DNA from: Naegleria gruberi
Lineage: Eukaryota
Reading direction: 5' to 3' (one strand)
Assembly (NCBI GenBank): GCA_000004985.1
Contig: GG738961.1
Length of the DNA stretch: 18,311 nucleotides
Shown here: positions 1,908-18,311 of the stretch, piece after piece
How the letters are laid out: the number at the start of each line of letters is the position of its first letter
How positions within the stretch are numbered: the stretch's first letter is position 1
The notes under the pieces: model-generated
What the model saw: only the letters and a program-made list of their open reading frames with translations
The model's database searches: none
What the model was told of the DNA's origin: nothing
Made by a program: the position numbers and the translations under genes

Positions 1908-1954
1908 TAGAATTTCGAGAATATTTATTAAACTATAGGATAGGCATTCTAATT

Positions 1955-2693
1955 GGGTTTGGTTAGGATTCAGAGTTGATTTATTTGGGTTATTTAAGAG
2001 ATTACTTAGTGAAGATTCATATCATTGATTATATTTCTTATCGTCTATAAATGATGTAAATTTGATGGTTTCATTTCTTGTATTGATAGATATTTAAAGG
2101 TCAGGTCAGTACTAACTTTTGAATTATGGACTTTGAGAAGTCAAATGTTTGGGACGTGAATCTACTCATTAGATTGAATAGGTTTTGCTAATAAAAGAAC
2201 ATTTCATTGATTTATTGATTATAACGGTCAAATTGAGTTGAATGGAAGTGAATCTAATGTTGATTCATCGTGGATGGGTAGTTTCGCCACGAAGTGGTGC
2301 AACTACCAACCTTTGTAGATTGAATCAGGTTGATTTTCATGCAATATGAAATATAGCATTATCAAGAGTGTGATTGTTCACCAATTCAATGATCAATATT
2401 CAATAATCGGTTTGATTTCAATCAATAGCTTGATCATCAAGCTTTGATTTAATATTCCAGTAATCAACGGCAGTCTATTTTTAAATTTAATCAAAGACCA
2501 TATATAGTATCTAGACTTTTATGAAACTATCTAGATGTGTTCTATATTGAATAATATATTTGAAAATGAGAAGAATTAACTCTTCTATTGAGTTTTATTG
2601 GTATTGCAAGGTATTTCGATTATAATAATCTACACAGAAATCACACTTGAAATATAAACTGTATTACAATGTATGAGAAACATAACGGTGGGG
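1955..2693. repeat. subtelomeric repeat family, copy A (739 bp visible, truncated by the gap at 2694)
   Basis: It starts with GGGTTTGGTTAGGATTCAGAGTTGATTTATTTGGG. It is co-linear and ~95% identical by eye with 9241-9968 (copy B) and 12797-13560 (copy C). The shared internal landmarks are: gtcaggtcagtactaac, caatagcttgatcatcaagctttga (a palindromic core) and ctacacagaaatcacacttgaaatataaactgta. Confidence 0.8.
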
Positions 2694-3023
2694 NNNNNNN
2701 NNNNNNNNNNNNNNNNNNNNNNNNNNNNNNNNNNNNNNNNNNNNNNNNNNNNNNNNNNNNNNNNNNNNNNNNNNNNNNNNNNNNNNNNNNNNNNNNNNNN
2801 NNNNNNNNNNNNNNNNNNNNNNNNNNNNNNNNNNNNNNNNNNNNNNNNNNNNNNNNNNNNNNNNNNNNNNNNNNNNNNNNNNNNNNNNNNNNNNNNNNNN
2901 NNNNNNNNNNNNNNNNNNNNNNNNNNNNNNNNNNNNNNNNNNNNNNNNNNNNNNNNNNNNNNNNNNNNNNNNNNNNNNNNNNNNNNNNNNNNNNNNNNNN
3001 NNNNNNNNNNNNNNNNNNNNNNN
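2694..3023. other. assembly gap (330 N), with a further single N at 3037
   Basis: Run of n characters. Confidence 0.97.
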
Positions 3024-3703
3024 AATTCATATGGTANATATGGAAATATTCTATAATTACTTTTCAAGGCAATTTTGCAAAATTCCAAATTAGATTTTAA
3101 ATTTTCAGATAAATATCTAAATGATGTTTCTGAATTTTTAATTGAATTCAGTGCTATACCCTTGTTATTCTTAACGTCTTCATTTGTAACGTATTTCATC
3201 AATGATCCATTTATAGAAAGTGCCATATTACACAATTCAATGTCAGATCTCAATTCTTGTGATGCAAATTCAAATGCTTGAACATTACTTTGCAATGCTA
3301 TTTTAACTAATTCTCTATCATTTTGATAATTTGGAAAATATTTCAATAAATTTCCATTTCTAGAAAGTATAATTTTCATAATATTGCTGTTACTGGTCAA
3401 TAGTTTGGATTGATATTTAATTAATTGATAAGTTAACATTTTAATATTGTAATCACTAGAATTTTTCAAACTTGTTTCAATTAACTCTTCATCATTTAAA
3501 ATTTTATCATATTCACTCTCCGGAAATTTTTCATAATTGATCAATAATTCATCTCCATCTTTTTTTACAATTTCCAATCTTTCACTTTGAAGTGTATTTA
3601 AAGTGAATTTACTTGATGAAAAACGAGCCAATGATGATGAACTGAAGAGCTGTGGTTTTATCAATTTGTGTGTTAAAACACCAAGCTTGACAAGTTGTTT
3701 CAT
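3024..3703 (-). CDS. DUF4116-like repeat protein with an N-terminal mitochondrial-presequence-like segment; partial, with the 3' end lost in the gap
   Basis: On the minus strand the ATG at 3703-3701 sits in caaaaaaaaATGaaa context. About 226 codons are open down to the gap with no stop seen. Tandem ~30-aa units (LKYFPNYQNDRELVKIALQSNVQAFEFASQELRSDIELCNMALSINGSLMKYVTNEDVKNNKGIALNSIKNSETSFRYLSENLKSNLEFCKIALKSN) fit the DUF4116 aL.yas.eL.nd.e.v..A...ng pattern. This is from memory and not searched. The first 41 residues (MKQLVKLGVLTHKLIKPQLFSSSSLARFSSSKFTLNTLQSE) are basic and hydroxylated with no acidic residue. Confidence 0.55.
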
Positions 3704-3734
3704 TTTTTTTTGATTGGTAAAGCTTTGTTCATAT

Positions 3735-4030
3735 CAAGTTCTGGTTCCGATCACAAGCCTGTCCAACCTTGTATGCTTCTAGTTGAACTACTGGTGTTGT
3801 TTTGGACTCTGGTGATGGTGCCTGCCACTGTTCCAATTTATGAAGGTTATGCTTTGCCACACTCTTCATCCAAACATTCATCATCCTCAAAATGACCATT
3901 ATCAACAGATGATAAAGTGTGGAGATTGCAGCATTGCCAAATACAATTCCGACACTTCTTGGTAGTTGCCAGCTGGCAGGTTGGGACAAGTGGCCTTAAT
4001 AGATTTAAGAGTGTTGTCAGGTCCCGCCAA
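3735..4030. other. GC-rich island (~45-50% GC against ~30% background) of unknown nature: ncRNA, internal exon or insertion
   Basis: Composition shifts abruptly (gttctggttccgatcacaagcctgtccaacc ... gtcaggtcccgccaattccc). The overlapping ORFs on both strands (3695-3895 + and 3729-3989 -) start only at TTG, with no in-frame ATG. The block ends 25 nt upstream of the DUF4116 gene's ATG on the minus strand. Confidence 0.3.
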
Positions 4031-4576
4031 TTCCCTTTGTAAAATAAAAGGCTATTTTTACCTTAAAATCGATGTAGTTTTGAACTAATATGAATTGGAT
4101 GAATCGACTAGTACGTATTTATTTAAGGCTGTGATATTCCGATCATCATCATCATTATTATAGTTGGTTAACAGGACGATTTATCATCATCAACAACAAA
4201 AACAAGAACAGCTTCCGAATCAGATCAAACCACAGAGGGTAGGAAGTTGCAACTCTGCTATCAAAGGTCCTGGTGTTTTTTGCTTGCTAACTTTGACGAC
4301 ACGTTTGTACCCTCATTGTTGCACAAATACCACTCTCAATTGCTTAAATGTTAGTATCATGATTAATTAATTATTAAGACTTGTTCTCTTTTCAGAAATA
4401 CATCTCTTCAATAATAACACACTGTAAGTAGTAAATGAGAATATCATCATGACTAATATATCAGAATTTAAACGATCTATTTTAATTGGTAAAGTGTAGA
4501 TTTATTTCAATCTGAATGAAGGTTTTCTTGAACAATTTTCTAATAACAATAATATAACAATAACAGTAAAGTGACC

Positions 4577-5025
4577 ATGATAAAGGAGTGGAACTCTTTT
4601 GTAAGTATAATATCACTCAACATTTAATAATCAAAGAGGTCGCAGCAGTTTAAGTATTTCAGATTATGTAACAATGTAATGAATTGATTCATTTAAGGTA
4701 GGTTTATCATTATCAAGAAAATTGTTCAAAAGAACAGCATACTCAAACTTATCTTTTACATTGGACTAATGTCCCATCAACCAAGAAGACTTATGAATTT
4801 CCTGAAAGTGGAAATGTAGAAATTATTTATATTTATCACGATGAGCTCTTTTCAAATATTCAAATTGTGACAAAAGACACTGTTATTCCAATTACTATTC
4901 CAATTAAATTACAAATATCGAATGTGGATATCCCAAAACAATTACCACAAACACTCTCATTAAGTGACTCGGTCTTTCCACAGGAAAGAGTTTCGCTGAA
5001 AAATGTTTCCTGGAAATTCCAGTAA
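4577..5025 (+). CDS. candidate spliced protein-coding gene of uncertain structure. The ATG at 4577 plus 7 codons is followed by a canonical 62-nt intron (4601-4662). A 107-codon ATG-less ORF (4702-5025) lies downstream
   Basis: A textbook donor (ttttGTAAGTat at 4601) pairs with an acceptor (agtatttcAG at 4661-4662). Further donor and acceptor pairs lie at 4350/4394-4395 (aatGTTAGT ... ctcttttcAG) and 4424/4463-4464 (actGTAAGT ... atatcAG). The 4702-5025 ORF reads VYHYQENCSKEQHTQTYLLHWTNVPSTKKTYEFPESGNVEIIYIYHDELFSNIQIVTKDTVIPITIPIKLQISNVDIPKQLPQTLSLSDSVFPQERVSLKNVSWKFQ*. I could not assemble a consistent exon chain by hand. Confidence 0.2.
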
Positions 5026-5745
5026 ACAATATTGATTCATCCAAATATCCAAAAACTATTATTCGGAGTGTTGTTGATGAAGTATTTGAATGGTACTATT
5101 CGAAGAAAGTTTGGTTGATGATGAAGTACATGTTGAAATATGGTCAATGTATATTTTGAATATATACATGTACCTATCTTGATGAAAACAAAATTCCAAT
5201 CTATGAAACTCGAATATGTATTGCTATATACTATTACAAATAATCCCACATTTGAATTTCTGATAATGGTCCAGTACATCGGAAGATATTGGCCAATTAG
5301 TGAAAAATAACTTTTGTCAAAATAATACTATTCTCAAATTAAAGTCTACAAATACTATTGTTATAATGATGGTAAAAATTAATGATGATGGTTGGTGTGT
5401 GTTCTGATGATGATTCACCAACTTGAATTTTTCCAATATCAAAATTACTATCTAATTCCATAACGATAAACTTCCACATAAAACTACTATTTTTACTATT
5501 ATATTGATGATGTATAGATGATGTATAGATGATGAGGTTCAATTCTTGGAGTGGGAAGATGAAGAACCACTCCGAAAATAAGCTACTCATAAAATTGATA
5601 TTTTTTATGAATGCAAGATACTTCTTTGTTGAGGTCGCTGTGAATATTCTTTCGATGTCTTTGAGGTTCAAAACTGTGCAATTAGCTTCGGACTCAAAAC
5701 AATTAAGGAAGTATTGCTTCCATTTTTATTTTGCTTTACTGGATT

Positions 5746-5783
5746 TTCCAGGAAAGATTTCTTTAGGAAACTCTTTCCTGGAA
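5746..5783. repeat. perfect 12-bp inverted repeat (TTCCAGGAAAGA ... TCTTTCCTGGAA) with a 14-nt spacer. It is a hairpin in the 3' flank of the minus-strand gene
   Basis: The arms lie at 5746-5757 and 5772-5783 and are exact reverse complements. The hairpin lies 64-101 nt beyond the stop of the 5847-6329 minus-strand CDS. Confidence 0.5.
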
Positions 5784-5846
5784 TACCCCAGCCAGAAATC
5801 TTTCCGGCCACACTTGTCGTTATCTTTAGCAACCATTTTTACTATT

Positions 5847-6329
5847 TTACAACAAACTTTTTGCCTCTGTTGCTAACACCACAAAGTCGTCCAGGGTCTG
5901 TGGTGGCGTATTGCCTCCGGCAAGTTGCGCTAATTGGGCAAACATCATCAATCCTCTGACTTTGTCTGACCTATTGGCACAAGTGTTTGCTAAGCTGAAA
6001 ATATCATTGAACTCAGACTCAATAGTTTGGAAGAACTCAATGAAATCCATTCCCGTTATGTACATTGGATCAATATTTGTTTTTGTTGAGAATTGATACA
6101 AGAAAAAGAATGGATCGGTAGTTAAAATTTGTGCAATTTCCTCATCACTAAGTGGGCTTACAATATTTTTAACGCTTTCTTTGAAGTTGTGATTTAGGAT
6201 TGTTAATTCTGTCACTGTATCAACCAAAGGCATATCAAACTTATCCATTTGTTTTAGTATTTCACAATAGACAAGAAGAGCCTCCTTTTTCGTAGCTCGG
6301 ATAGAGAGTACAAGAATTGTATCAAACAT
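5847..6329 (-). CDS. hypothetical protein, probably the terminal exon of a larger minus-strand gene
   Basis: The minus-strand ORF runs from the ATG at 6329-6327 (MFDTILVLSIRATKKEALLVYCEILKQMDKF...LAQLAGGNTPPQTLDDFVVLATEAKSLL*) to the stop at 5849-5847. The same frame stays open a further ~100 nt upstream (ENGVLYPKLNIHIRHTRGFLLGHTTPDWLSVRLLSD) to a TAA near 6433 with no in-frame ATG, so an upstream exon is likely. The residue composition is protein-like. I do not recognise the family. Confidence 0.45.
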   Translation of the reverse strand: MFDTILVLSIRATKKEALLVYCEILKQMDKFDMPLVDTVTELTILNHNFKESVKNIVSPLSDEEIAQILTTDPFFFLYQFSTKTNIDPMYITGMDFIEFFQTIESEFNDIFSLANTCANRSDKVRGLMMFAQLAQLAGGNTPPQTLDDFVVLATEAKSLL

Positions 6330-6578
6330 ATCTGACAACAGTCGCACAGATAACCAATCTGGAGTGGTGTGACCAAGAAGGAAGCCTCTCGTGTGTCTGA
6401 TGTGAATGTTCAGTTTGGGATATAAAACACCATTTTCTTAGTAGTACCGTTTGGTGGTTTAGTGTGTTTCTCGATCTAAATTCGAGTTTGAATATAATTT
6501 TTGTACATATTCACAATTTATTTTGTTGTTATATGAGAATTGATTTTTTGTATTTTATTTTTTTGATAAATTATTGGG

Positions 6579-6581
<3 letters not shown>

Positions 6582-6609
<28 letters not shown>
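6582..6609. repeat. (AT)14 dinucleotide microsatellite
   Basis: It reads atatatatatatatatatatatatatat. Confidence 0.95.
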
Positions 6610-6612
<3 letters not shown>

Positions 6613-6922
6613 AACAAAAATTATATTTATCTATGTTAGAAAAATCATTTCCCTTTTATTCTTCATCATGCTCCTCCTCATGTTTTTTACACATCCTGTC
6701 TTTATCAAATCCCATTCTCACTACATCCTTTTCATCATAATTCCTCGCAAATTCATTTATCTGTTCAGATTACATTTATTTACCCCTTAAAAGTGATTTT
6801 CCATTCTTCATTTTACATGATATTTTCGGTGATTTCTTGGTAAGAACTCTTTATTAGTAGACTTTTTGTATTTCATTTTTTTCTGTCAACAGGTTTCACA
6901 TATTATAAACAACAAAAGGTTT

Positions 6923-9214
6923 NNNNNNNNNNNNNNNNNNNNNNNNNNNNNNNNNNNNNNNNNNNNNNNNNNNNNNNNNNNNNNNNNNNNNNNNNNNNNN
7001 NNNNNNNNNNNNNNNNNNNNNNNNNNNNNNNNNNNNNNNNNNNNNNNNNNNNNNNNNNNNNNNNNNNNNNNNNNNNNNNNNNNNNNNNNNNNNNNNNNNN
7101 NNNNNNNNNNNNNNNNNNNNNNNNNNNNNNNNNNNNNNNNNNNNNNNNNNNNNNNNNNNNNNNNNNNNNNNNNNNNNNNNNNNNNNNNNNNNNNNNNNNN
7201 NNNNNNNNNNNNNNNNNNNNNNNNNNNNNNNNNNNNNNNNNNNNNNNNNNNNNNNNNNNNNNNNNNNNNNNNNNNNNNNNNNNNNNNNNNNNNNNNNNNN
7301 NNNNNNNNNNNNNNNNNNNNNNNNNNNNNNNNNNNNNNNNNNNNNNNNNNNNNNNNNNNNNNNNNNNNNNNNNNNNNNNNNNNNNNNNNNNNNNNNNNNN
7401 NNNNNNNNNNNNNNNNNNNNNNNNNNNNNNNNNNNNNNNNNNNNNNNNNNNNNNNNNNNNNNNNNNNNNNNNNNNNNNNNNNNNNNNNNNNNNNNNNNNN
7501 NNNNNNNNNNNNNNNNNNNNNNNNNNNNNNNNNNNNNNNNNNNNNNNNNNNNNNNNNNNNNNNNNNNNNNNNNNNNNNNNNNNNNNNNNNNNNNNNNNNN
7601 NNNNNNNNNNNNNNNNNNNNNNNNNNNNNNNNNNNNNNNNNNNNNNNNNNNNNNNNNNNNNNNNNNNNNNNNNNNNNNNNNNNNNNNNNNNNNNNNNNNN
7701 NNNNNNNNNNNNNNNNNNNNNNNNNNNNNNNNNNNNNNNNNNNNNNNNNNNNNNNNNNNNNNNNNNNNNNNNNNNNNNNNNNNNNNNNNNNNNNNNNNNN
7801 NNNNNNNNNNNNNNNNNNNNNNNNNNNNNNNNNNNNNNNNNNNNNNNNNNNNNNNNNNNNNNNNNNNNNNNNNNNNNNNNNNNNNNNNNNNNNNNNNNNN
7901 NNNNNNNNNNNNNNNNNNNNNNNNNNNNNNNNNNNNNNNNNNNNNNNNNNNNNNNNNNNNNNNNNNNNNNNNNNNNNNNNNNNNNNNNNNNNNNNNNNNN
8001 NNNNNNNNNNNNNNNNNNNNNNNNNNNNNNNNNNNNNNNNNNNNNNNNNNNNNNNNNNNNNNNNNNNNNNNNNNNNNNNNNNNNNNNNNNNNNNNNNNNN
8101 NNNNNNNNNNNNNNNNNNNNNNNNNNNNNNNNNNNNNNNNNNNNNNNNNNNNNNNNNNNNNNNNNNNNNNNNNNNNNNNNNNNNNNNNNNNNNNNNNNNN
8201 NNNNNNNNNNNNNNNNNNNNNNNNNNNNNNNNNNNNNNNNNNNNNNNNNNNNNNNNNNNNNNNNNNNNNNNNNNNNNNNNNNNNNNNNNNNNNNNNNNNN
8301 NNNNNNNNNNNNNNNNNNNNNNNNNNNNNNNNNNNNNNNNNNNNNNNNNNNNNNNNNNNNNNNNNNNNNNNNNNNNNNNNNNNNNNNNNNNNNNNNNNNN
8401 NNNNNNNNNNNNNNNNNNNNNNNNNNNNNNNNNNNNNNNNNNNNNNNNNNNNNNNNNNNNNNNNNNNNNNNNNNNNNNNNNNNNNNNNNNNNNNNNNNNN
8501 NNNNNNNNNNNNNNNNNNNNNNNNNNNNNNNNNNNNNNNNNNNNNNNNNNNNNNNNNNNNNNNNNNNNNNNNNNNNNNNNNNNNNNNNNNNNNNNNNNNN
8601 NNNNNNNNNNNNNNNNNNNNNNNNNNNNNNNNNNNNNNNNNNNNNNNNNNNNNNNNNNNNNNNNNNNNNNNNNNNNNNNNNNNNNNNNNNNNNNNNNNNN
8701 NNNNNNNNNNNNNNNNNNNNNNNNNNNNNNNNNNNNNNNNNNNNNNNNNNNNNNNNNNNNNNNNNNNNNNNNNNNNNNNNNNNNNNNNNNNNNNNNNNNN
8801 NNNNNNNNNNNNNNNNNNNNNNNNNNNNNNNNNNNNNNNNNNNNNNNNNNNNNNNNNNNNNNNNNNNNNNNNNNNNNNNNNNNNNNNNNNNNNNNNNNNN
8901 NNNNNNNNNNNNNNNNNNNNNNNNNNNNNNNNNNNNNNNNNNNNNNNNNNNNNNNNNNNNNNNNNNNNNNNNNNNNNNNNNNNNNNNNNNNNNNNNNNNN
9001 NNNNNNNNNNNNNNNNNNNNNNNNNNNNNNNNNNNNNNNNNNNNNNNNNNNNNNNNNNNNNNNNNNNNNNNNNNNNNNNNNNNNNNNNNNNNNNNNNNNN
9101 NNNNNNNNNNNNNNNNNNNNNNNNNNNNNNNNNNNNNNNNNNNNNNNNNNNNNNNNNNNNNNNNNNNNNNNNNNNNNNNNNNNNNNNNNNNNNNNNNNNN
9201 NNNNNNNNNNNNNN
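6923..9214. other. assembly gap (2292 N)
   Basis: Run of n characters. An exon-like start (ATG at 6817, GTAAGA donor at 6840, caacAG acceptor at 6891-6892) runs into it. Confidence 0.97.
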
Positions 9215-9240
9215 CGAAAAATTATCCAATCATCCAGGCT

Positions 9241-11922
9241 CTTGTTAGGATTCAGAGTTGATTTATTTGGGTTATTTAAGAGATTACTTAGTGAAGATTT
9301 ATATCATTGATTATATTTCTTATCATCTATAAATGATGTAAATTTGATGGTTTCATTTCTTGTATTGATAGATATTTAAAGGTCAGGTCAGTACTAACTT
9401 TTGAATTATGGACTTTTAGAAGTCAAATGTTTGGGACGTGAATCTACTCATTAGATTGAATAGGTATTGCTAATAAAGTAACATTTCATTGATTTATTGA
9501 TTATAACGGTCAAATTGAGTTGAATGGAAGTGAATCTAATGTTGATTCATCGTGGAATGGTAGTTTCGCCACGTACAAACCTTTGTAGATTGAATCAGGT
9601 TGATTTGCATCTCTCCAATATGTAGCATTATCAAGAGAGTGATTATTCTCCAATTCAATGACCAATATTCAATAATCGGTTTGATTTGAATCAATAGCTT
9701 GATCAACAAGCTTTGAATCAAGATTCCAGTAATCAACGGCAGTCTATTTTTAAATTTGACCAAAGACCATATATAGTATCTTGACTTTCATGATCTGGCA
9801 ACTATCTAGATGTGTTCTTTTTTGAATAATCTATTTGAAAATGAGAAGAATTAACTCTTCTATTGAGTTTTATTGGTATTTCATGGTTTTACGATTATAA
9901 TAATCTACACAGAAATCACACTTGAAATATAAACTGTATTACAATGTATGAGAAACATAATGGTGGTGGAATTAATCAATAACTCGTTGAAATGACTGAG
10001 ATGGAATGTAAACTATGGTCTATTTGTTATGTAACGGTGACTAGACAGTGTCAATTTCATCAAATTATTTCAAACTGATAACATTCAATAAAAAAACCAC
10101 TCTATACATCAAATATACCATATAGAATGAGTTTCAATATTTAATATTGTGAACTGACTCTGTTGGATACCAGCTCTATAAATATAACAATATGAAAAGT
10201 GTCAACATTCAATTTCACATTCATGTTACTATGAAGAGTCATCATTATATCATCTAAATAGGTTGTATATCAAGTTTCAGTGGAATTGACTGTCTACATA
10301 TTGAGATGTGCATACTAAGGTTAAAGAAGTGTCACCTTCACTGATTACTGACATGAATATAACAATTGAATGTATTATTCTTGTATAATTAATTCATTAT
10401 TCAATGATTTTGATATGATGGTAAAATTTAATTTTGAAATTAAGATTCTTCCCTATTGATTACCTTAGATGTTCCTTAGTTGACTTGAAGATATTGAGCC
10501 ATGAATATAAAACTTTCTCAGATTGTTCTCCTCATCAAGAGGAGTGTATTCATATTTGATACTTGTTTGACATTTTGAAAAATGAATGAGATGGAGTATA
10601 TTCTATATGTTGAAATGTGACAATTTGACAGATTGTTATTATTATCATATTGAATTCAATTCTAAAACACTAAAATTGATACCAGTTGTATATAAGTGTG
10701 ACTAAATGTATCTGGTAAAGTTACGTGATGGTTGGATATACTTTCATTGAGACAGTGTGTACACTTGGATATAAGCACTATTGACATTAAATATTTACTG
10801 ATTGACTGAATGAAAGTATCATGAATTGTTTCAAAACGTGTATAGATGTATATAAATGATGTATTGAATGTGTATTATCAATTCTAGACTAATTGCATAT
10901 AAAATAAGTGATTTAGAGCATAATCTTTGATTTTATGTCAAAGTTCTATAGTATAGTGATAGAGTTGACAACTCAATATCTACTGAGCCAATATTCATGA
11001 AATTGATATTATATGCTAATTAGAGTGTCTACATATTATGATATCAATTTCATTGAAATTGGAGTTGATTCTATATCCTTCAGATTTCTTCAATGAAATA
11101 TCACCATGTACTATCTAACGGATGCATTTCTTGAAATGAAATTATATAATTTGATGAAAGTCCACTTTATTTGAGATGTAGAACACGATATTATCATTTA
11201 TTTTGAGATTGGTAACTTTTCCTAAAGTCTCATCCTTAATGGTCTTAATTGACTAAAAGAGGTCAAGGAGAGATTTCAAAACATAAAATAAATGATATTT
11301 TCGAGATGTACTAATGATTTCCAATCGATTGATATGTATTTTGTAGATTGAGGATGTGGTTTTCTGTATTCAAGATTTCCTCCTGATCTTCCCAAGTCAA
11401 CCTTGATAAATCACTCTTTACCTTACTGAAAGATGGAATGTTCACCAAAACGTCTAAAAACTGAATTATATACATTATCGGAGATGTGGAACATGATGGT
11501 AATGTTTCATAAAGTGGTCATTTTCCAGAAATTCATCCGTGTCCATAGTTTATCAGATGGCATGTTAGCCATGTGTGATTGAGGGAAGAAATCTTTAAAT
11601 ATTAAAGTTAAAATAAATTTGATATTCGATGTTTACTCATCAAATGGAACATTTTCATATTAGGATTCAATATGTTTTGATGAGAAACTCAAAAGTTATC
11701 GTTGACCTCTTTTACCTCACAACTTCCCTTTTCACTTGATACTTTTATATCTACAGACTTGAACTTTTATAATTTGATATGAAAGTGATTATGAATGTTA
11801 TTAATGATGATATAGACTATATAATCTCATTAAAGGATTTTGAAATTAACATTCTTCCTATAGTTTCATTTTACAAATTTTAATCTGACATTATTTACAA
11901 AGTTAATATTTTATAAATTGAA
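9241..11922. repeat. subtelomeric repeat family, copy B (~2.7 kb, the only copy fully sequenced)
   Basis: Positions 9241-9968 align with copy A and 9241-10199 with copy C's pre-gap part. Positions ~11560-11922 align with copy C's post-gap tail (17219-17586). No ORF is credible; only a 75-aa low-complexity ORF is present. The copy ends at a GGGTTTGGTTATCGG motif (11923-11937). Confidence 0.8.
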
Positions 11923-12796
11923 GGGTTTGGTTATCGGAACCTCGGATACCTCTTACTCCAATCTCTTATTGATTTAAGATTTTGAAATTGTTTATTATTG
12001 AATTTTTATAAAGAGTATTGACACGAATCAGAAGCTTCTTATTGTGACAACACTTGATAGAAGAATGGGAAAGTGGTTCAACATATTGAAAGTGAACAAT
12101 CTCAAGATTTGGAACTCTTCTTCATGAAGAGGAGGTTATTGGGTGGTGACTAGAGAGAAACATTTCCTTGTAGCTTTTCTACTAGTAAATGATTAATTGA
12201 CCAAGATGTTGACCTATAATATGGAAACACAATAAAATTTAATAATACTGATAAATACAAGTAGTGAATATGAATGGTAATCATAATTCACTGAAAAAAT
12301 CATGATTGGATCCATTATGAGACTTTTGGAAGTCAACTTGGATGGCAATAGGGGAGCTTTCGATGTGATTAACACTTTTAAAGGGATATGAATATTTTAT
12401 TGGATAAAATATGTCATCGCTGTACTTTATCACTAAATGTTGAATATCATGATGTTATAATCTATATTTCCAATTTGGGAAATGTTGTAATGTCAATGTT
12501 TAATTGAAATATTGCCATCATACCAATAATTGATTTTATACTATAAAAATGATATTATACACTATAATTGATATATATATGAATATATGATTGTAATATT
12601 TCAATTTTAACATTTATTAATGACGTGGGTTGTTCACTAAGGTAGTAACTTTGTCATATGATAACTATCTAAGATGATATTAAAATCATTCCAAAATTGA
12701 TTCGATGAGAGTATTTGATGATTATAACATGGTAATATTGAATTGGTGTTGATTAGTACCATTCATGACATGTAAGAATGTTACCTTTTTGTCAAT

Positions 12797-15700
12797 GGGG
12801 TTTGGTTAGGATTCAGAGTTGATTTATTTGGGTTATTTAAGAGATTACTTAGTGAAGATTCATATCATTGATTATATTTCTTATCATCTATTAATGATGT
12901 TAATTTGATGGTTTCATTTCTTATATTGATAGATATTTAAAGGTCAGGTCAGTACTAACTTTTGAATTATGGACTTTGAGAATTCAAATGTTTGGGACGT
13001 GAATCTACTCATTAGATTGAATAGGTATTGCTAATAAAGGAACATTTCATTGATTTATTGATTATAACGGTCAAATTGAGTTGAATGGAAGTGAATCACA
13101 TGTTGATTCATAGTGGTTGGGTAGTTTCGCCACGAAGTGGTGCAACTACCAACCTTTGTAGATTGAATCAGGTTGATTTGCATGCAATCTGAAATATGTA
13201 GCATGATTCAAGTGATTATTCACCAATTCAATGATCAATATTCAATAATCGGTTTGATTTCAATCAATAGCTTGATCATCAAGCTTTGAATTAATATTCC
13301 AGTAATTAACGGCAGTCTATTTTTAAATTTAATCAAAGACCATATATAGTATCTTGACTTTTATGATCTGGAAACTATCTAGATGTGTTCTATATTGAAT
13401 AATCTATTTGAAAATGAGATGAATTAACTCTTCTATTGAGTTTTATTGGTATTGTATGCTATTACGATTATAATAATCTACACAAAAATCACTCTTGAAA
13501 TATAAACTGTAGTAGAACGTTTGAGAAACATAATGGTGGCGGAATTAACCAATAACTCGTTGAAATGACTGAGATGGAATGTAAACTATGGTCTATTTGT
13601 CATGTAATGGTGACTAGACCGTGTCAATTTCATCAAATTATTTCAAACTGATTACAATCAATAAAAACCCGTTCCATACATCAAACATATCATATAGAAT
13701 GAGTTTCAATATTTAACATTGTGAACTGACTCTGTTGGATACCATCTCTATAAATATAACAAGATGAAAAGNNNNNNNNNNNNNNNNNNNNNNNNNNNNN
13801 NNNNNNNNNNNNNNNNNNNNNNNNNNNNNNNNNNNNNNNNNNNNNNNNNNNNNNNNNNNNNNNNNNNNNNNNNNNNNNNNNNNNNNNNNNNNNNNNNNNN
13901 NNNNNNNNNNNNNNNNNNNNNNNNNNNNNNNNNNNNNNNNNNNNNNNNNNNNNNNNNNNNNNNNNNNNNNNNNNNNNNNNNNNNNNNNNNNNNNNNNNNN
14001 NNNNNNNNNNNNNNNNNNNNNNNNNNNNNNNNNNNNNNNNNNNNNNNNNNNNNNNNNNNNNNNNNNNNNNNNNNNNNNNNNNNNNNNNNNNNNNNNNNNN
14101 NNNNNNNNNNNNNNNNNNNNNNNNNNNNNNNNNNNNNNNNNNNNNNNNNNNNNNNNNNNNNNNNNNNNNNNNNNNNNNNNNNNNNNNNNNNNNNNNNNNN
14201 NNNNNNNNNNNNNNNNNNNNNNNNNNNNNNNNNNNNNNNNNNNNNNNNNNNNNNNNNNNNNNNNNNNNNNNNNNNNNNNNNNNNNNNNNNNNNNNNNNNN
14301 NNNNNNNNNNNNNNNNNNNNNNNNNNNNNNNNNNNNNNNNNNNNNNNNNNNNNNNNNNNNNNNNNNNNNNNNNNNNNNNNNNNNNNNNNNNNNNNNNNNN
14401 NNNNNNNNNNNNNNNNNNNNNNNNNNNNNNNNNNNNNNNNNNNNNNNNNNNNNNNNNNNNNNNNNNNNNNNNNNNNNNNNNNNNNNNNNNNNNNNNNNNN
14501 NNNNNNNNNNNNNNNNNNNNNNNNNNNNNNNNNNNNNNNNNNNNNNNNNNNNNNNNNNNNNNNNNNNNNNNNNNNNNNNNNNNNNNNNNNNNNNNNNNNN
14601 NNNNNNNNNNNNNNNNNNNNNNNNNNNNNNNNNNNNNNNNNNNNNNNNNNNNNNNNNNNNNNNNNNNNNNNNNNNNNNNNNNNNNNNNNNNNNNNNNNNN
14701 NNNNNNNNNNNNNNNNNNNNNNNNNNNNNNNNNNNNNNNNNNNNNNNNNNNNNNNNNNNNNNNNNNNNNNNNNNNNNNNNNNNNNNNNNNNNNNNNNNNN
14801 NNNNNNNNNNNNNNNNNNNNNNNNNNNNNNNNNNNNNNNNNNNNNNNNNNNNNNNNNNNNNNNNNNNNNNNNNNNNNNNNNNNNNNNNNNNNNNNNNNNN
14901 NNNNNNNNNNNNNNNNNNNNNNNNNNNNNNNNNNNNNNNNNNNNNNNNNNNNNNNNNNNNNNNNNNNNNNNNNNNNNNNNNNNNNNNNNNNNNNNNNNNN
15001 NNNNNNNNNNNNNNNNNNNNNNNNNNNNNNNNNNNNNNNNNNNNNNNNNNNNNNNNNNNNNNNNNNNNNNNNNNNNNNNNNNNNNNNNNNNNNNNNNNNN
15101 NNNNNNNNNNNNNNNNNNNNNNNNNNNNNNNNNNNNNNNNNNNNNNNNNNNNNNNNNNNNNNNNNNNNNNNNNNNNNNNNNNNNNNNNNNNNNNNNNNNN
15201 NNNNNNNNNNNNNNNNNNNNNNNNNNNNNNNNNNNNNNNNNNNNNNNNNNNNNNNNNNNNNNNNNNNNNNNNNNNNNNNNNNNNNNNNNNNNNNNNNNNN
15301 NNNNNNNNNNNNNNNNNNNNNNNNNNNNNNNNNNNNNNNNNNNNNNNNNNNNNNNNNNNNNNNNNNNNNNNNNNNNNNNNNNNNNNNNNNNNNNNNNNNN
15401 NNNNNNNNNNNNNNNNNNNNNNNNNNNNNNNNNNNNNNNNNNNNNNNNNNNNNNNNNNNNNNNNNNNNNNNNNNNNNNNNNNNNNNNNNNNNNNNNNNNN
15501 NNNNNNNNNNNNNNNNNNNNNNNNNNNNNNNNNNNNNNNNNNNNNNNNNNNNNNNNNNNNNNNNNNNNNNNNNNNNNNNNNNNNNNNNNNNNNNNNNNNN
15601 NNNNNNNNNNNNNNNNNNNNNNNNNNNNNNNNNNNNNNNNNNNNNNNNNNNNNNNNNNNNNNNNNNNNNNNNNNNNNNNNNNNNNNNNNNNNNNNNNNNN

Positions 15701-17586
15701 NNNNNNNNNNNNNNNNNNNNNNNNNNNNNNNNNNNNNNNNNNNNNNNNNNNNNNNNNNNNNNNNNNNNNNNNNNNNNNNNNNNNNNNNNNNNNNNNNNNN
15801 NNNNNNNNNNNNNNNNNNNNNNNNNNNNNNNNNNNNNNNNNNNNNNNNNNNNNNNNNNNNNNNNNNNNNNNNNNNNNNNNNNNNNNNNNNNNNNNNNNNN
15901 NNNNNNNNNNNNNNNNNNNNNNNNNNNNNNNNNNNNNNNNNNNNNNNNNNNNNNNNNNNNNNNNNNNNNNNNNNNNNNNNNNNNNNNNNNNNNNNNNNNN
16001 NNNNNNNNNNNNNNNNNNNNNNNNNNNNNNNNNNNNNNNNNNNNNNNNNNNNNNNNNNNNNNNNNNNNNNNNNNNNNNNNNNNNNNNNNNNNNNNNNNNN
16101 NNNNNNNNNNNNNNNNNNNNNNNNNNNNNNNNNNNNNNNNNNNNNNNNNNNNNNNNNNNNNNNNNNNNNNNNNNNNNNNNNNNNNNNNNNNNNNNNNNNN
16201 NNNNNNNNNNNNNNNNNNNNNNNNNNNNNNNNNNNNNNNNNNNNNNNNNNNNNNNNNNNNNNNNNNNNNNNNNNNNNNNNNNNNNNNNNNNNNNNNNNNN
16301 NNNNNNNNNNNNNNNNNNNNNNNNNNNNNNNNNNNNNNNNNNNNNNNNNNNNNNNNNNNNNNNNNNNNNNNNNNNNNNNNNNNNNNNNNNNNNNNNNNNN
16401 NNNNNNNNNNNNNNNNNNNNNNNNNNNNNNNNNNNNNNNNNNNNNNNNNNNNNNNNNNNNNNNNNNNNNNNNNNNNNNNNNNNNNNNNNNNNNNNNNNNN
16501 NNNNNNNNNNNNNNNNNNNNNNNNNNNNNNNNNNNNNNNNNNNNNNNNNNNNNNNNNNNNNNNNNNNNNNNNNNNNNNNNNNNNNNNNNNNNNNNNNNNN
16601 NNNNNNNNNNNNNNNNNNNNNNNNNNNNNNNNNNNNNNNNNNNNNNNNNNNNNNNNNNNNNNNNNNNNNNNNNNNNNNNNNNNNNNNNNNNNNNNNNNNN
16701 NNNNNNNNNNNNNNNNNNNNNNNNNNNNNNNNNNNNNNNNNNNNNNNNNNNNNNNNNNNNNNNNNNNNNNNNNNNNNNNNNNNNNNNNNNNNNNNNNNNN
16801 NNNNNNNNNNNNNNNNNNNNNNNNNNNNNNNNNNNNNNNNNNNNNNNNNNNNNNNNNNNNNNNNNNNNNNNNNNNNNNNNNNNNNNNNNNNNNNNNNNNN
16901 NNNNNNNNNNNNNNNNNNNNNNNNNNNNNNNNNNNNNNNNNNNNNNNNNNNNNNNNNNNNNNNNNNNNNNNNNNNNNNNNNNNNNNNNNNNNNNNNNNNN
17001 NNNNNNNNNNNNNNNNNNNNNNNNNNNNNNNNNNNNNNNNNNNNNNNNNNNNNNNNNNNNNNNNNNNNNNNNNNNNNNNNNNNNNNNNNNNNNNNNNNNN
17101 NNNNNNNNNNNNNNNNNNNNNNNNNNNNNNNNNNNNNNNNNNNNNNNNNNNNNNNNNNNNNNNNNNNNNNNNNNNNNNNNNNNNNNNNNNNNNNNNNNNN
17201 NNNNNNNNNNNNNNNNNNTCAACATAGTTGACCGTATGATGGTTGAGGGAAGAAATCTTTAAATATGAAAGTTAAAATAAATTTGATATTCGATGTATAC
17301 TCATCAAATGGAACATTTTCATGGCAGGATTCAATATGTTTAGATGAGAAACTCAAAAGTTATAGTTGACCTATTGTACCTCACAACTTCCCTTTTCACT
17401 TGATACTTTTATACCTACAGACATGAACTTTTGAAATTTTATATGAAAGTGATTATGAATGTTGTTAACGATGATATAGACTATATAATCTCATTAAAGG
17501 ATTTTGAAATTATCATTCTTCCTATAGTTGTATATTTGAAATTTTAATCTGATATTATTTACAAAGTTAATATTTTATAAATTGAA
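12797..17586. repeat. subtelomeric repeat family, copy C (starts GGGGTTTGGTTAGGATTCAGAGTTG; interior replaced by the gap)
   Basis: Positions 12797-13771 are ~95-97% identical to copy A and copy B starts. Positions 17219-17586 match the copy B tail. An ~870 bp spacer (11923-12796) with no second copy in the window separates copies B and C. Confidence 0.75.
13772..17218. other. assembly gap (3447 N) inside repeat copy C
   Basis: Run of n characters. The equivalent interval in copy B is only ~1.36 kb (10200-11560). Confidence 0.97.
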
Positions 17587-17671
17587 AAACTAAATATACC
17601 ACGTTGTTCTACTCATCATTTCCTATCGAATGATATAAAATTTAATGATATTTGAATAAGTTTATAATTTT

Positions 17672-17722
17672 GGGCTAGGGTTTGAACGTTGGGTTTAGAA
17701 GAATTGGGTTTGGATTAGAGTT
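17672..17722 (+). repeat. interstitial cluster of degenerate telomere-like motifs
   Basis: It reads gggctagggtttgaacgttgggtttagaagaattgggtttggattagagttg. It begins with the same tgggctagg junction motif found at the true telomere junction (18021-18029). It ends in gggtttggattagagttg, which resembles the repeat-unit start gggtttggttaggattcagagttg. Confidence 0.5.
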
Positions 17723-18021
17723 GTTTTGATTTGTTACTTCGGTGGCACCATGGTCTTTATGATCTAATATAGAGTCTTTAAGTGAATCTTGGGCTTTTGG
17801 AAAGGTTTTTCAGTAAAGTTTTAAAAAAAGTATATACTTTCTATCTAGATATCGAGATTTGGTGTATTTGTTGTTTGCATTGTTATTTGGAAAGTGGTAA
17901 AGATTTCGATATTCTTTGTTGGGTTTGGTTATCGTTTCGTACTCATTGGATCTTCATTATTATTGAAATACATAATCAATGATATACATCATTAAATAGG
18001 TTACAATCTCAGCTATCCAGT

Positions 18022-18311
18022 GGGCTAGGTTGGGTTTGGGTTTGGGTTTGGGTTTGGGTTTGGGTTTGGGTTTGGGTTTGGGTTTGGGTTTGGGTTTGGG
18101 TTTGGGTTTGGGTTTGGGTTTGGGTTTGGGTTTGGGTTTGGGTTTGGGTTTGGGTTTGGGTTTGGGTTTGGGTTTGGGTTTGGGTTTGGGTTTGGGTTTG
18201 GGTTTGGGTTTGGGTTTGGGTTTGGGTTTGGGTTTGGGTTTGGGTTTGGGTTTGGGTTTGGGTTTGGGTTTGGGTTTGGGTTTGGGTTTGGGTTTGGGTT
18301 GGGTTGGGTTG
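18022..18311 (+). repeat. telomere repeat array (GGGTTT)n, G-strand 5'->3' toward the window end
   Basis: A degenerate junction (gggctaggtt) is followed by ~45 perfect GGGTTT hexamers in constant phase from 18032 to 18295. The last 16 nt are GGGTT x3 + G (18296-18311). Confidence 0.92.

Follow-up and report, generated by a model that had tools for sequence, protein, structure and literature searches.

The window is an entire scaffold from Naegleria gruberi NEG-M, 18,311 bp long and approximately 33% N. Its interval from 9.2 to 18.0 kb was best explained as the subtelomeric non-coding zone of one chromosome end, containing a species-specific element of ~2.69 kb that probably spread, from one chromosome end to another or along an end, by seed-primed recombination; we hold this explanation at somewhat better than even. 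The terminal tract of TTTGGG repeats, which is preceded by TGGGCTAGG at 18021, agrees with the candidate telomere repeat of N. gruberi, TTTGGG, named in a 2013 survey (PMC3622300). The copies of the element (A, B, and C, with the tail of C termed C'), their telomere-like seeds, and the intervening segments are as follows.

1951..2693, + strand: copy A, head fragment with 743 bp visible, ending at the 2694-3023 gap, 16 kb inside the scaffold
1955..1967, + strand: seed GGGTTTGGTTAGG, exact left edge of copy A
9231..11922, + strand: copy B, the sole complete unit, 2,692 bp, with an N gap 16 nt from its left edge
9231..9243, + strand: degenerate seed GGCTCTTGTTAGG, left edge of copy B
11923..11936, + strand: seed GGGTTTGGTTATCG, directly after the final base of copy B
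11923..12797, + strand: unique non-coding spacer between B and C, 875 bp, beginning with the seed
12798..13771, + strand: copy C head, 974 bp, opening with GGGTTTGGTTAGG, on the same contig as B and ending at a gap
13772..17218, no strand: assembly gap inside copy C, 3,447 N, number of copies within it not visible
17219..17586, + strand: unit tail C', 368 bp, 93% identical to the tail of B, with homology extending to the contig start
17587..18029, + strand: unique telomere-proximal segment, 443 bp, containing seed GGGTTTGGTTATCG at 17921
18030..18311, + strand: terminal telomere tract (TTTGGG)47, G-rich strand 5' to 3' to the scaffold end

Self-BLASTN detected three instances of the head segment (at 1951-2691 in A, 9244-10199 in B, and 12794-13771 in C) and two of the tail segment (at 11576-11922 in B and 17240-17586 in C'), with E-values of 0 to 2e-148. 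A ~2.7-kb repeat family, as proposed in a sequence-only reading of this DNA, was thus recovered in its heads and tails, but only one copy is seen in full; the span of copy C (12798-17586) is 72% N, and for the middle of B (1,376 bp, 10200-11575), no second copy was visible in the window. Gap-free identities were 95.8% for A/C, 95.1% for A/B, 93.6% for B/C, and 93.1% for the tails, so that the range of 90-97% estimated by eye held (93-96%). The palindrome AGCTTGATCATCAAGCT reported in the units was perfect in A and C and carried one mismatch in B, and the reported tail end TATTTTATAAATTGAA closes both tails, at 11922 and 17586. A start motif had been assigned to both B and C; C has GGGTTTGGTTAGG, whereas B has GGCTCTTGTTAGG instead. 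B and C' stop at the identical base and are followed by differing sequences, which points to a discrete end of the element. All visible copies share one orientation. The divergence of 4-7% among them indicated that the duplications are old, argues against ongoing amplification, and rules out one locus represented by collapsed reads.

The arrangement of the copies differed from that first described. B and C are not head to tail because the 875-bp unique spacer parts them, and their starts are 3,561-3,573 bp apart, which does not fit a strict 2.7-kb tandem array. The spacer had no second copy by self-BLASTN and no protein match. When the unit, the gene block, the spacer, and the 443-bp distal segment were compared for weak mutual similarity, none rose clearly above the shuffle controls; the top case, the spacer against unit B, scored 120 versus a shuffle maximum of 110. 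The region is indeed repeated, but the proposed repeat amplification is weak because the visible copies number just one whole and two partial, and these are diverged.

Three N runs (2694-3023, 6923-9214, and 13772-17218) interrupt the window, and much of the claimed tandem array falls within assembly gaps. Contigs of different chromosome ends or of divergent haplotypes might therefore have been joined by mate pairs, such that the A-B-C order and the continuity of C would be unreal and the array largely an artefact. Three of the four inter-contig boundaries lie within or beside a copy, N makes up one third of this small scaffold, and the gap in C, set at 3,447 N, matches neither the ~1,377 bp needed by one copy colinear with B nor a copy plus one 3.57-kb period (~4,950 bp). 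In contrast, a single gap-free contig (9215-13771) runs from B through the spacer to the C head, and hence B and the C head are real, giving at least two physically linked, co-oriented copies. Moreover, the C' tail and the telomere share the terminal contig, the tail ending 443 bp short of (TTTGGG)47, which upholds the claim that the repeats adjoin a true terminal telomere tract. With the sequence differences among the copies also at odds with collapsed reads, we judged an artefact on this scale to be highly improbable.

We then consider the seeds, which link the units to the telomere. Outside the terminal tract, GGGTTTGG occurs five times on the + strand and never on the - strand, against an expectation of ~0.12, and none of 2,000 simulations reached three occurrences. 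All five point the same way as the live telomere, three coincide exactly with unit edges, and GGGTTTGGTTA is common to four of the five seeds. Neither strand of 20.6 kb of internal DNA from N. lovaniensis, examined as a control, contained GGGTTTGG. The homology of A, B, and C begins precisely at the seed. The motifs were located where they had been reported, GGGTTTGGTTAGG at 1955 and 12798 and GGGTTTGGTTATCG at 11923 and 17921. The claim that every unit boundary carries a seed was borne out by the strong enrichment and the three exact edges, but not at the distal end of C', which has no seed directly after it. The seeds of A and C share descent from a single ancestral seed and do not represent separate healing events. 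The junction tracts are short, 8-14 nt; longer decayed telomere tracts around the seeds were rejected, as the 19-20 matches per 30-nt window were within the shuffle range. Separately, a degenerate interstitial telomere tract at 17671-17713 opens with TGGGCTAGG, 350 bp inside the live junction. This combination of TGGGCTAGG and telomere-like sequence is a fossil telomere junction.

From this anatomy, we infer copying by break-induced replication or telomere healing. Telomere-like tags (GGGTTTGG and its extensions) at segment junctions, oriented as the live telomere, would be the sites of exchange. In the likeliest history, a unit opening with a telomere-like tract would first have adjoined a telomere. 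Eroded or broken ends, with a 3' strand ending in TTTGGG-type sequence, would then have annealed at the tag, and the unit and the sequence beyond it would have been copied, either through break-induced replication or through exchange (ectopic or unequal) between chromosome ends. Drift of 4-7% between the copies would have followed. Such a zone may buffer the genes from the telomere and provide a substrate for end repair by recombination, and the element may be restricted to chromosome ends. Several observations sit uneasily with this explanation. The three visible copies are all in one 18-kb scaffold, and break-induced replication is expected to copy all sequence distal to the point of invasion, whereas B and C' share an end and then differ. 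The seeds are a constant 11-14 nt, unlike telomere tracts of variable length, and this suits a component of a mobile unit no less than a remnant of healing.

This last observation bears on a different origin, in which the minus strand of the unit encodes a retroelement that targets telomeres and is either decayed or non-autonomous. The RNA of such an element, ending in ...CCUAACCAAACCC-3', would pair with the TTTGGG 3' overhang, and the chromosome end would prime reverse transcription, placing the 3' end of the element centromere-ward. End-primed reverse transcription is the mechanism of endonuclease-deficient Penelope-like elements (Athena and Coprina) and, with poly(A), of Drosophila HeT-A/TART. 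The uniform orientation of the copies with the seed on the centromere side, the constant short seed length at independent junctions, the discrete distal end common to B and C', and the new seed directly after B all fit such an element. Copy A extends at most ~330 bp past its visible 743 bp, because a DUF4116 open reading frame (ORF) resumes at 3038 after the gap, and this limited length resembles 5' truncation. On the minus strand, the unit ends in CCTAACCAAACCC, uniformly oriented in the three copies, and AATAAA lies 26 nt ahead of this 3' end; AATAAA is, however, frequent in DNA of 29% GC. Against a retroelement, no remnant of reverse transcriptase, gag, or any other domain was present in any frame, no ORF had a protein match, and an autonomous partner is not known; a literature search for Naegleria together with Penelope-like elements returned nothing. 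Only three copies are visible, and the distal end of C' lacks a following seed. We therefore regard a retroelement as quite unlikely. A narrower version, in which the non-coding unit adds itself to chromosome ends through a minus-strand RNA tail, CCAAACCC, that anneals to the TTTGGG overhang and is copied by a reverse transcriptase in trans, possibly telomerase, appears very doubtful; if true, it would explain why the seeds are constant in length and why the distal end is discrete.

Coding capacity was absent from the unit, as the sequence-only reading had stated. The longest ORF was 75 aa with a TTG start, six-frame ORFs had no match among 5.8 billion proteins, and no Pfam remnant was found in any of the six frames at E<=0.1. 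A hidden intron-containing gene was rejected owing to random-looking translations and the lack of protein or Pfam matches. Low GC and the TTTGGG repeat had suggested a ciliate such as Paramecium, and the minus strand looked open under translation table 6; this origin and genetic code were also discarded, as the scaffold belongs to N. gruberi and in-frame TAA/TAG is lacking from the real genes of the window. The stacked hairpins described earlier were not supported, since folding equalled that of shuffled sequence (z = 0.04 on the + strand and -0.11 on the - strand); with no Rfam family and no tRNA in the unit, a structured RNA was rejected. Internal sub-repeats were likewise rejected: the GAGATG motif was enriched, but sub-blocks failed to align (42% column identity). 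The k-mer autocorrelation within the unit was weak, and Tandem Repeats Finder reported no array in 9215-13771 except a 49-bp AT-rich stretch at 12531. Hence, no sequence-specific coding or RNA function is inferred for the unit. Two metagenome scans and one viral scan yielded no unit matches.

The genes next to copy A gave a further view of the region. Beside copy A lies a vWA paralogue with a deletion and a frameshift, whose stop codon is 80 bp before the copy; it is a decayed gene in subtelomere-like surroundings. Copy A would be an older fragment lying deeper in the scaffold. Its relative in N. lovaniensis (P0004, 71% identical) is located internally and shows no similarity to the unit. The ORF at 5850-6248 on the - strand was 100% identical to NAEGRDRAFT_76334. 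If the scaffold order is correct, intact genes lie distal to copy A, between it and the other copies, and this position, 16 kb from the telomere, weighs against seed-primed spread at the chromosome end. It would suit an ordinary dispersed repeat, for example a segmental duplication or a non-autonomous transposon of no assigned class, clustered by chance and with an incidental link to the telomere. The age of the copies and the contig breaks within them, as seen with multi-copy repeats, are consistent with such a repeat. However, the local density is very high, with three copies in 12 kb of sequenced DNA by the telomere, and a telomere-like, telomere-co-oriented seed at the edge is not predicted for a random repeat. 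In addition, terminal inverted and long terminal repeats were absent, no inverted or direct repeat linked the two ends of the unit, and no target-site duplication was found at the copies, whose flanks (A, B, and C) differ; a classic DNA transposon or LTR element was rejected on these grounds. In Naegleria, 5mC occurs only in transposons according to PMC12695648, which describes a nanopore assembly of N. gruberi. Overall, we consider a dispersed repeat unlikely.

We compared the subtelomeric zone with known chromosome-end systems. Its architecture matches classic telomere-associated sequences with interstitial telomere tracts, such as the yeast X-(TG1-3)-Y'-(TG1-3)-Y' arrangement, in which elements lie by the telomere in one orientation, with short telomere-like tracts at the element junctions and pseudogenes nearby. 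In contrast to the yeast arrangement, the junction tracts here are only 8-14 nt, and unlike the helicase-encoding yeast Y' (5-7 kb), the 2.7-kb unit has no ORF and is unrelated in sequence. The AT-rich non-coding zone between the telomere and the first genes resembles Plasmodium TARE1-6, but TAREs are short tandem-repeat arrays, and no array was found within the unit. The unit had been likened to Y-prime and TARE sequences; it belongs to neither family because it lacks the helicase ORF of the former and the short tandem arrays of the latter. As with HeT-A/TART and Athena/Coprina, the three visible copies are co-oriented and the distal end is discrete, and a putative RNA would have its 3' end centromere-ward with a telomere-complementary terminus, whereas, unlike HeT-A/TART, SART/TRAS, and EN-minus Penelope-like elements, all frames are devoid of reverse transcriptase, gag, or other coding remnants. 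The architecture is of the expected kind, ordinary chromosome-end filler that leaves current ideas unchallenged.

No description of a Naegleria subtelomere was found in the searchable literature, in which the sole relevant paper was the telomere survey (PMC3622300). If the unit did add itself to chromosome ends, N. gruberi would be a heterolobosean with retroelement-assisted end maintenance. The scaffold offers a first view of one heterolobosean chromosome end. From the telomere inward, a fossil telomere junction comes first, followed by non-coding units that meet at telomere-like tags and then by the decayed copy of a gene. This view can help in completing Naegleria assemblies and in studying how chromosome ends are repaired in these amoebae.

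Self-BLASTN of the window identified a ~2.7-kb repeat element (the unit) whose head was found three times and whose tail was found twice, with gap-free identities between copies of 93.1–95.8%. The repeated segments detected by self-BLASTN were as follows.

1951–2691, + strand, head segment of copy A
9244–10199, + strand, head segment of copy B
12794–13771, + strand, head segment of copy C
11576–11922, + strand, tail segment of copy B
17240–17586, + strand, tail segment C′, beyond the gap in copy C

The sequence-only reading had described B and C as ~2.7-kb tandem copies with the same internal order, lying head to tail. B was complete (9231–11922, 2,692 bp) and was the sole complete copy, but C consisted of a 974-bp head, 3,447 N, and a 368-bp tail. 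Moreover, the starts of B and C were ~3,565 bp apart with an 875-bp unique spacer intervening, which contradicts a head-to-tail layout. The length of the N run within C matched neither one colinear copy (~1,377 bp) nor a copy with an extra period (~4,950 bp), and no second copy of the 1,376-bp middle of B was visible within the window. The named landmarks were all present, namely the telomere-like tags (seeds), the 17-nt palindrome, and the last 16 bases of the unit, common to both tails. The proposed stacked hairpins folded no better than shuffled sequence. The hexamer GAGATG was observed at eight sites in the window, all within units B and C; the blocks around these sites did not align as sub-repeats.

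9998, 10303, 10588, 11173, 11303, 11481, 13416, 13571, GAGATG sites

The window is an entire small scaffold of the N. gruberi NEG-M draft assembly. With a GC content of ~30% across 18,311 bases, it terminated in 47 copies of TTGGGT, i.e., (TTTGGG)n, whose G-rich strand reads 5′ to 3′ toward the end. TTTGGG was listed as the candidate N. gruberi telomere repeat from scaffold ends in a 2013 survey (PMC3622300). The final two repeats of the tract (18296–18311) read TTGGG instead of TTTGGG, reflecting either a sequencing error at the end of a read or a variant form of the repeat. N accounted for one third of the window, in three runs (2694–3023, 6923–9214, and 13772–17218). One unbroken contig (9215–13771) carried B, the spacer, and the head of C, and the terminal contig (17219–18311) carried a unit tail 443 bp from the telomere tract; both linkages are physically secure. 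These two contigs and that of copy A are assigned to one chromosome end on scaffolding alone. A largely artefactual scaffold layout is unlikely in our judgment. From 9231 to 18029, G exceeded C on the telomere-ward (+) strand throughout, with a skew of +0.10 to +0.30, in contrast to −0.03 in the gene block (3038–6922).

The genes neighboring copy A were examined.

733–1873, + strand, vWA-domain gene with a frame break at 1317/1325
3038–3703, − strand, DUF4116 gene with three repeats (Pfam E = 1e-30)

Copy A started 80 bp past the stop codon of the vWA gene. The vWA ORF was 82% identical to an N. gruberi protein, and no annotated N. gruberi protein was closer. This gene is probably a pseudogene, because it lacks 18 codons found in three relatives and its frame changes from +1 to +2 at 1317/1325. 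Between A and B lay the gap-cut DUF4116 gene and NAEGRDRAFT_76334. As the 3′ end of the DUF4116 gene enters the gap at 2694–3036, copy A could continue for at most another ~330 bp. No in-frame TAA or TAG was present in the vWA ORFs or in the 232-codon DUF4116 ORF, indicating that the genetic code is standard; a ciliate origin, considered at first, was rejected on this ground. The ORF at 5850–6248 (−) was 100% identical to NAEGRDRAFT_76334 (XP_002668748.1), whose annotated length is 133 aa. A 290-aa ENA protein showed 99.5% identity over 196 residues to 5850–6437 (−) in this region, and its first 94 residues had no counterpart in the window outside the N runs. The gene model thus looks truncated, with its 5′ exon(s) probably within the gap at 6923–9214. 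Accordingly, this gap is probably partly coding, and a whole unit cannot fit there. The gene block also contained an inverted repeat (47 nt, 89% matching, arms 4981–5026 and 5735–5780, ~700 bp apart); microRNA-model matches at 5737–5793 were weak and far below threshold.

The absence of a credible ORF in the unit was confirmed, as none was longer than 75 aa under the standard code. All stop-to-stop ORFs of 20 aa or more in the six frames of 9215–12793 were combined into a single query; among 5.8 billion proteins, including the N. gruberi annotation, it had no match at E ≤ 0.001. Stop-masked six-frame translations gave no Pfam match at E ≤ 0.1, and hence neither a reverse transcriptase nor a transposase or helicase has left a recognizable remnant. 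Neither Rfam families nor tRNAs were found in the unit, nor were terminal inverted repeats, long terminal repeats, or a tandem sub-array.

The seeds were located at the following positions.

1955, 11923, 12798, 17921, + strand, telomere-like seeds

Outside the terminal tract, GGGTTTGG had five occurrences on the + strand and none on the − strand, against an expectation of 0.12 under a first-order Markov model; a count of three was not reached in any of 2,000 simulations. Four sites had GGGTTTGGTTA in common. Since the seeds of A and C are homologous and go back to a single ancestral seed, the number of independent seeds is three or four, not five. In a three-way alignment, the seed marked the exact start of homology among A, B, and C, whose upstream flanks were unrelated. 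A and C carried the start motif; in B, to which the sequence-only reading also assigned it, the left-edge seed was degenerate (GGCTCTTGTTAGG). The first G of another seed was the base directly after the final base of B. None of the 30-nt windows around the seeds matched (TTTGGG)n better than shuffles, and seed length was constant and short, whereas variable length is expected of telomere remnants.

Constant seed length, together with uniform copy orientation and a discrete distal end, would be explained if the unit were a non-autonomous retroelement that is encoded on the minus strand and targets telomeres. This is the main competitor on mechanism; however, it has neither a coding remnant nor a known partner, and we regard it as unlikely. 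The origin that we consider most likely, at slightly better than even odds, is copying by recombination, either along a chromosome end or from one end to another: a TTTGGG-ending 3′ strand would anneal to the tag at the proximal edge of a unit and prime such copying. Taken as a whole, the observation made in the sequence-only reading is partly confirmed and its interpretation partly supported.

The 9-mer TGGGCTAGG had only two sites in the window. One (18021–18029) directly preceded the live telomere tract. The other, at 17671 (within 17671–17713), directly preceded three GGGTTT units clustered within 45 nt; this inner site looks like a fossil of an older telomere junction, 350 bp inward of the present one.

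Beyond the window, motifs conserved in all three copies had no matches in one viral and two metagenome scans. The N. lovaniensis vWA relative (P0004) was 71% identical and lay 177 kb from its own contig end; no unit similarity was found at this locus, and GGGTTTGG was absent from the surrounding 20.6 kb. A literature search found no description of Naegleria subtelomeres; for N. gruberi, a nanopore assembly has been described (PMC12695648). That the unit is an incidental dispersed repeat seems rather unlikely to us.

We concluded that the repeat family is real but modest, and that the chromosome end at which it lies is genuine. In its anatomy, the region corresponds to a telomere-associated sequence zone. 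A species-specific, non-coding element is present in a few copies of the same orientation, linked through short telomere-like tags; a fossil junction lies close to the tip, and a decayed copy of a gene lies deeper in the scaffold.
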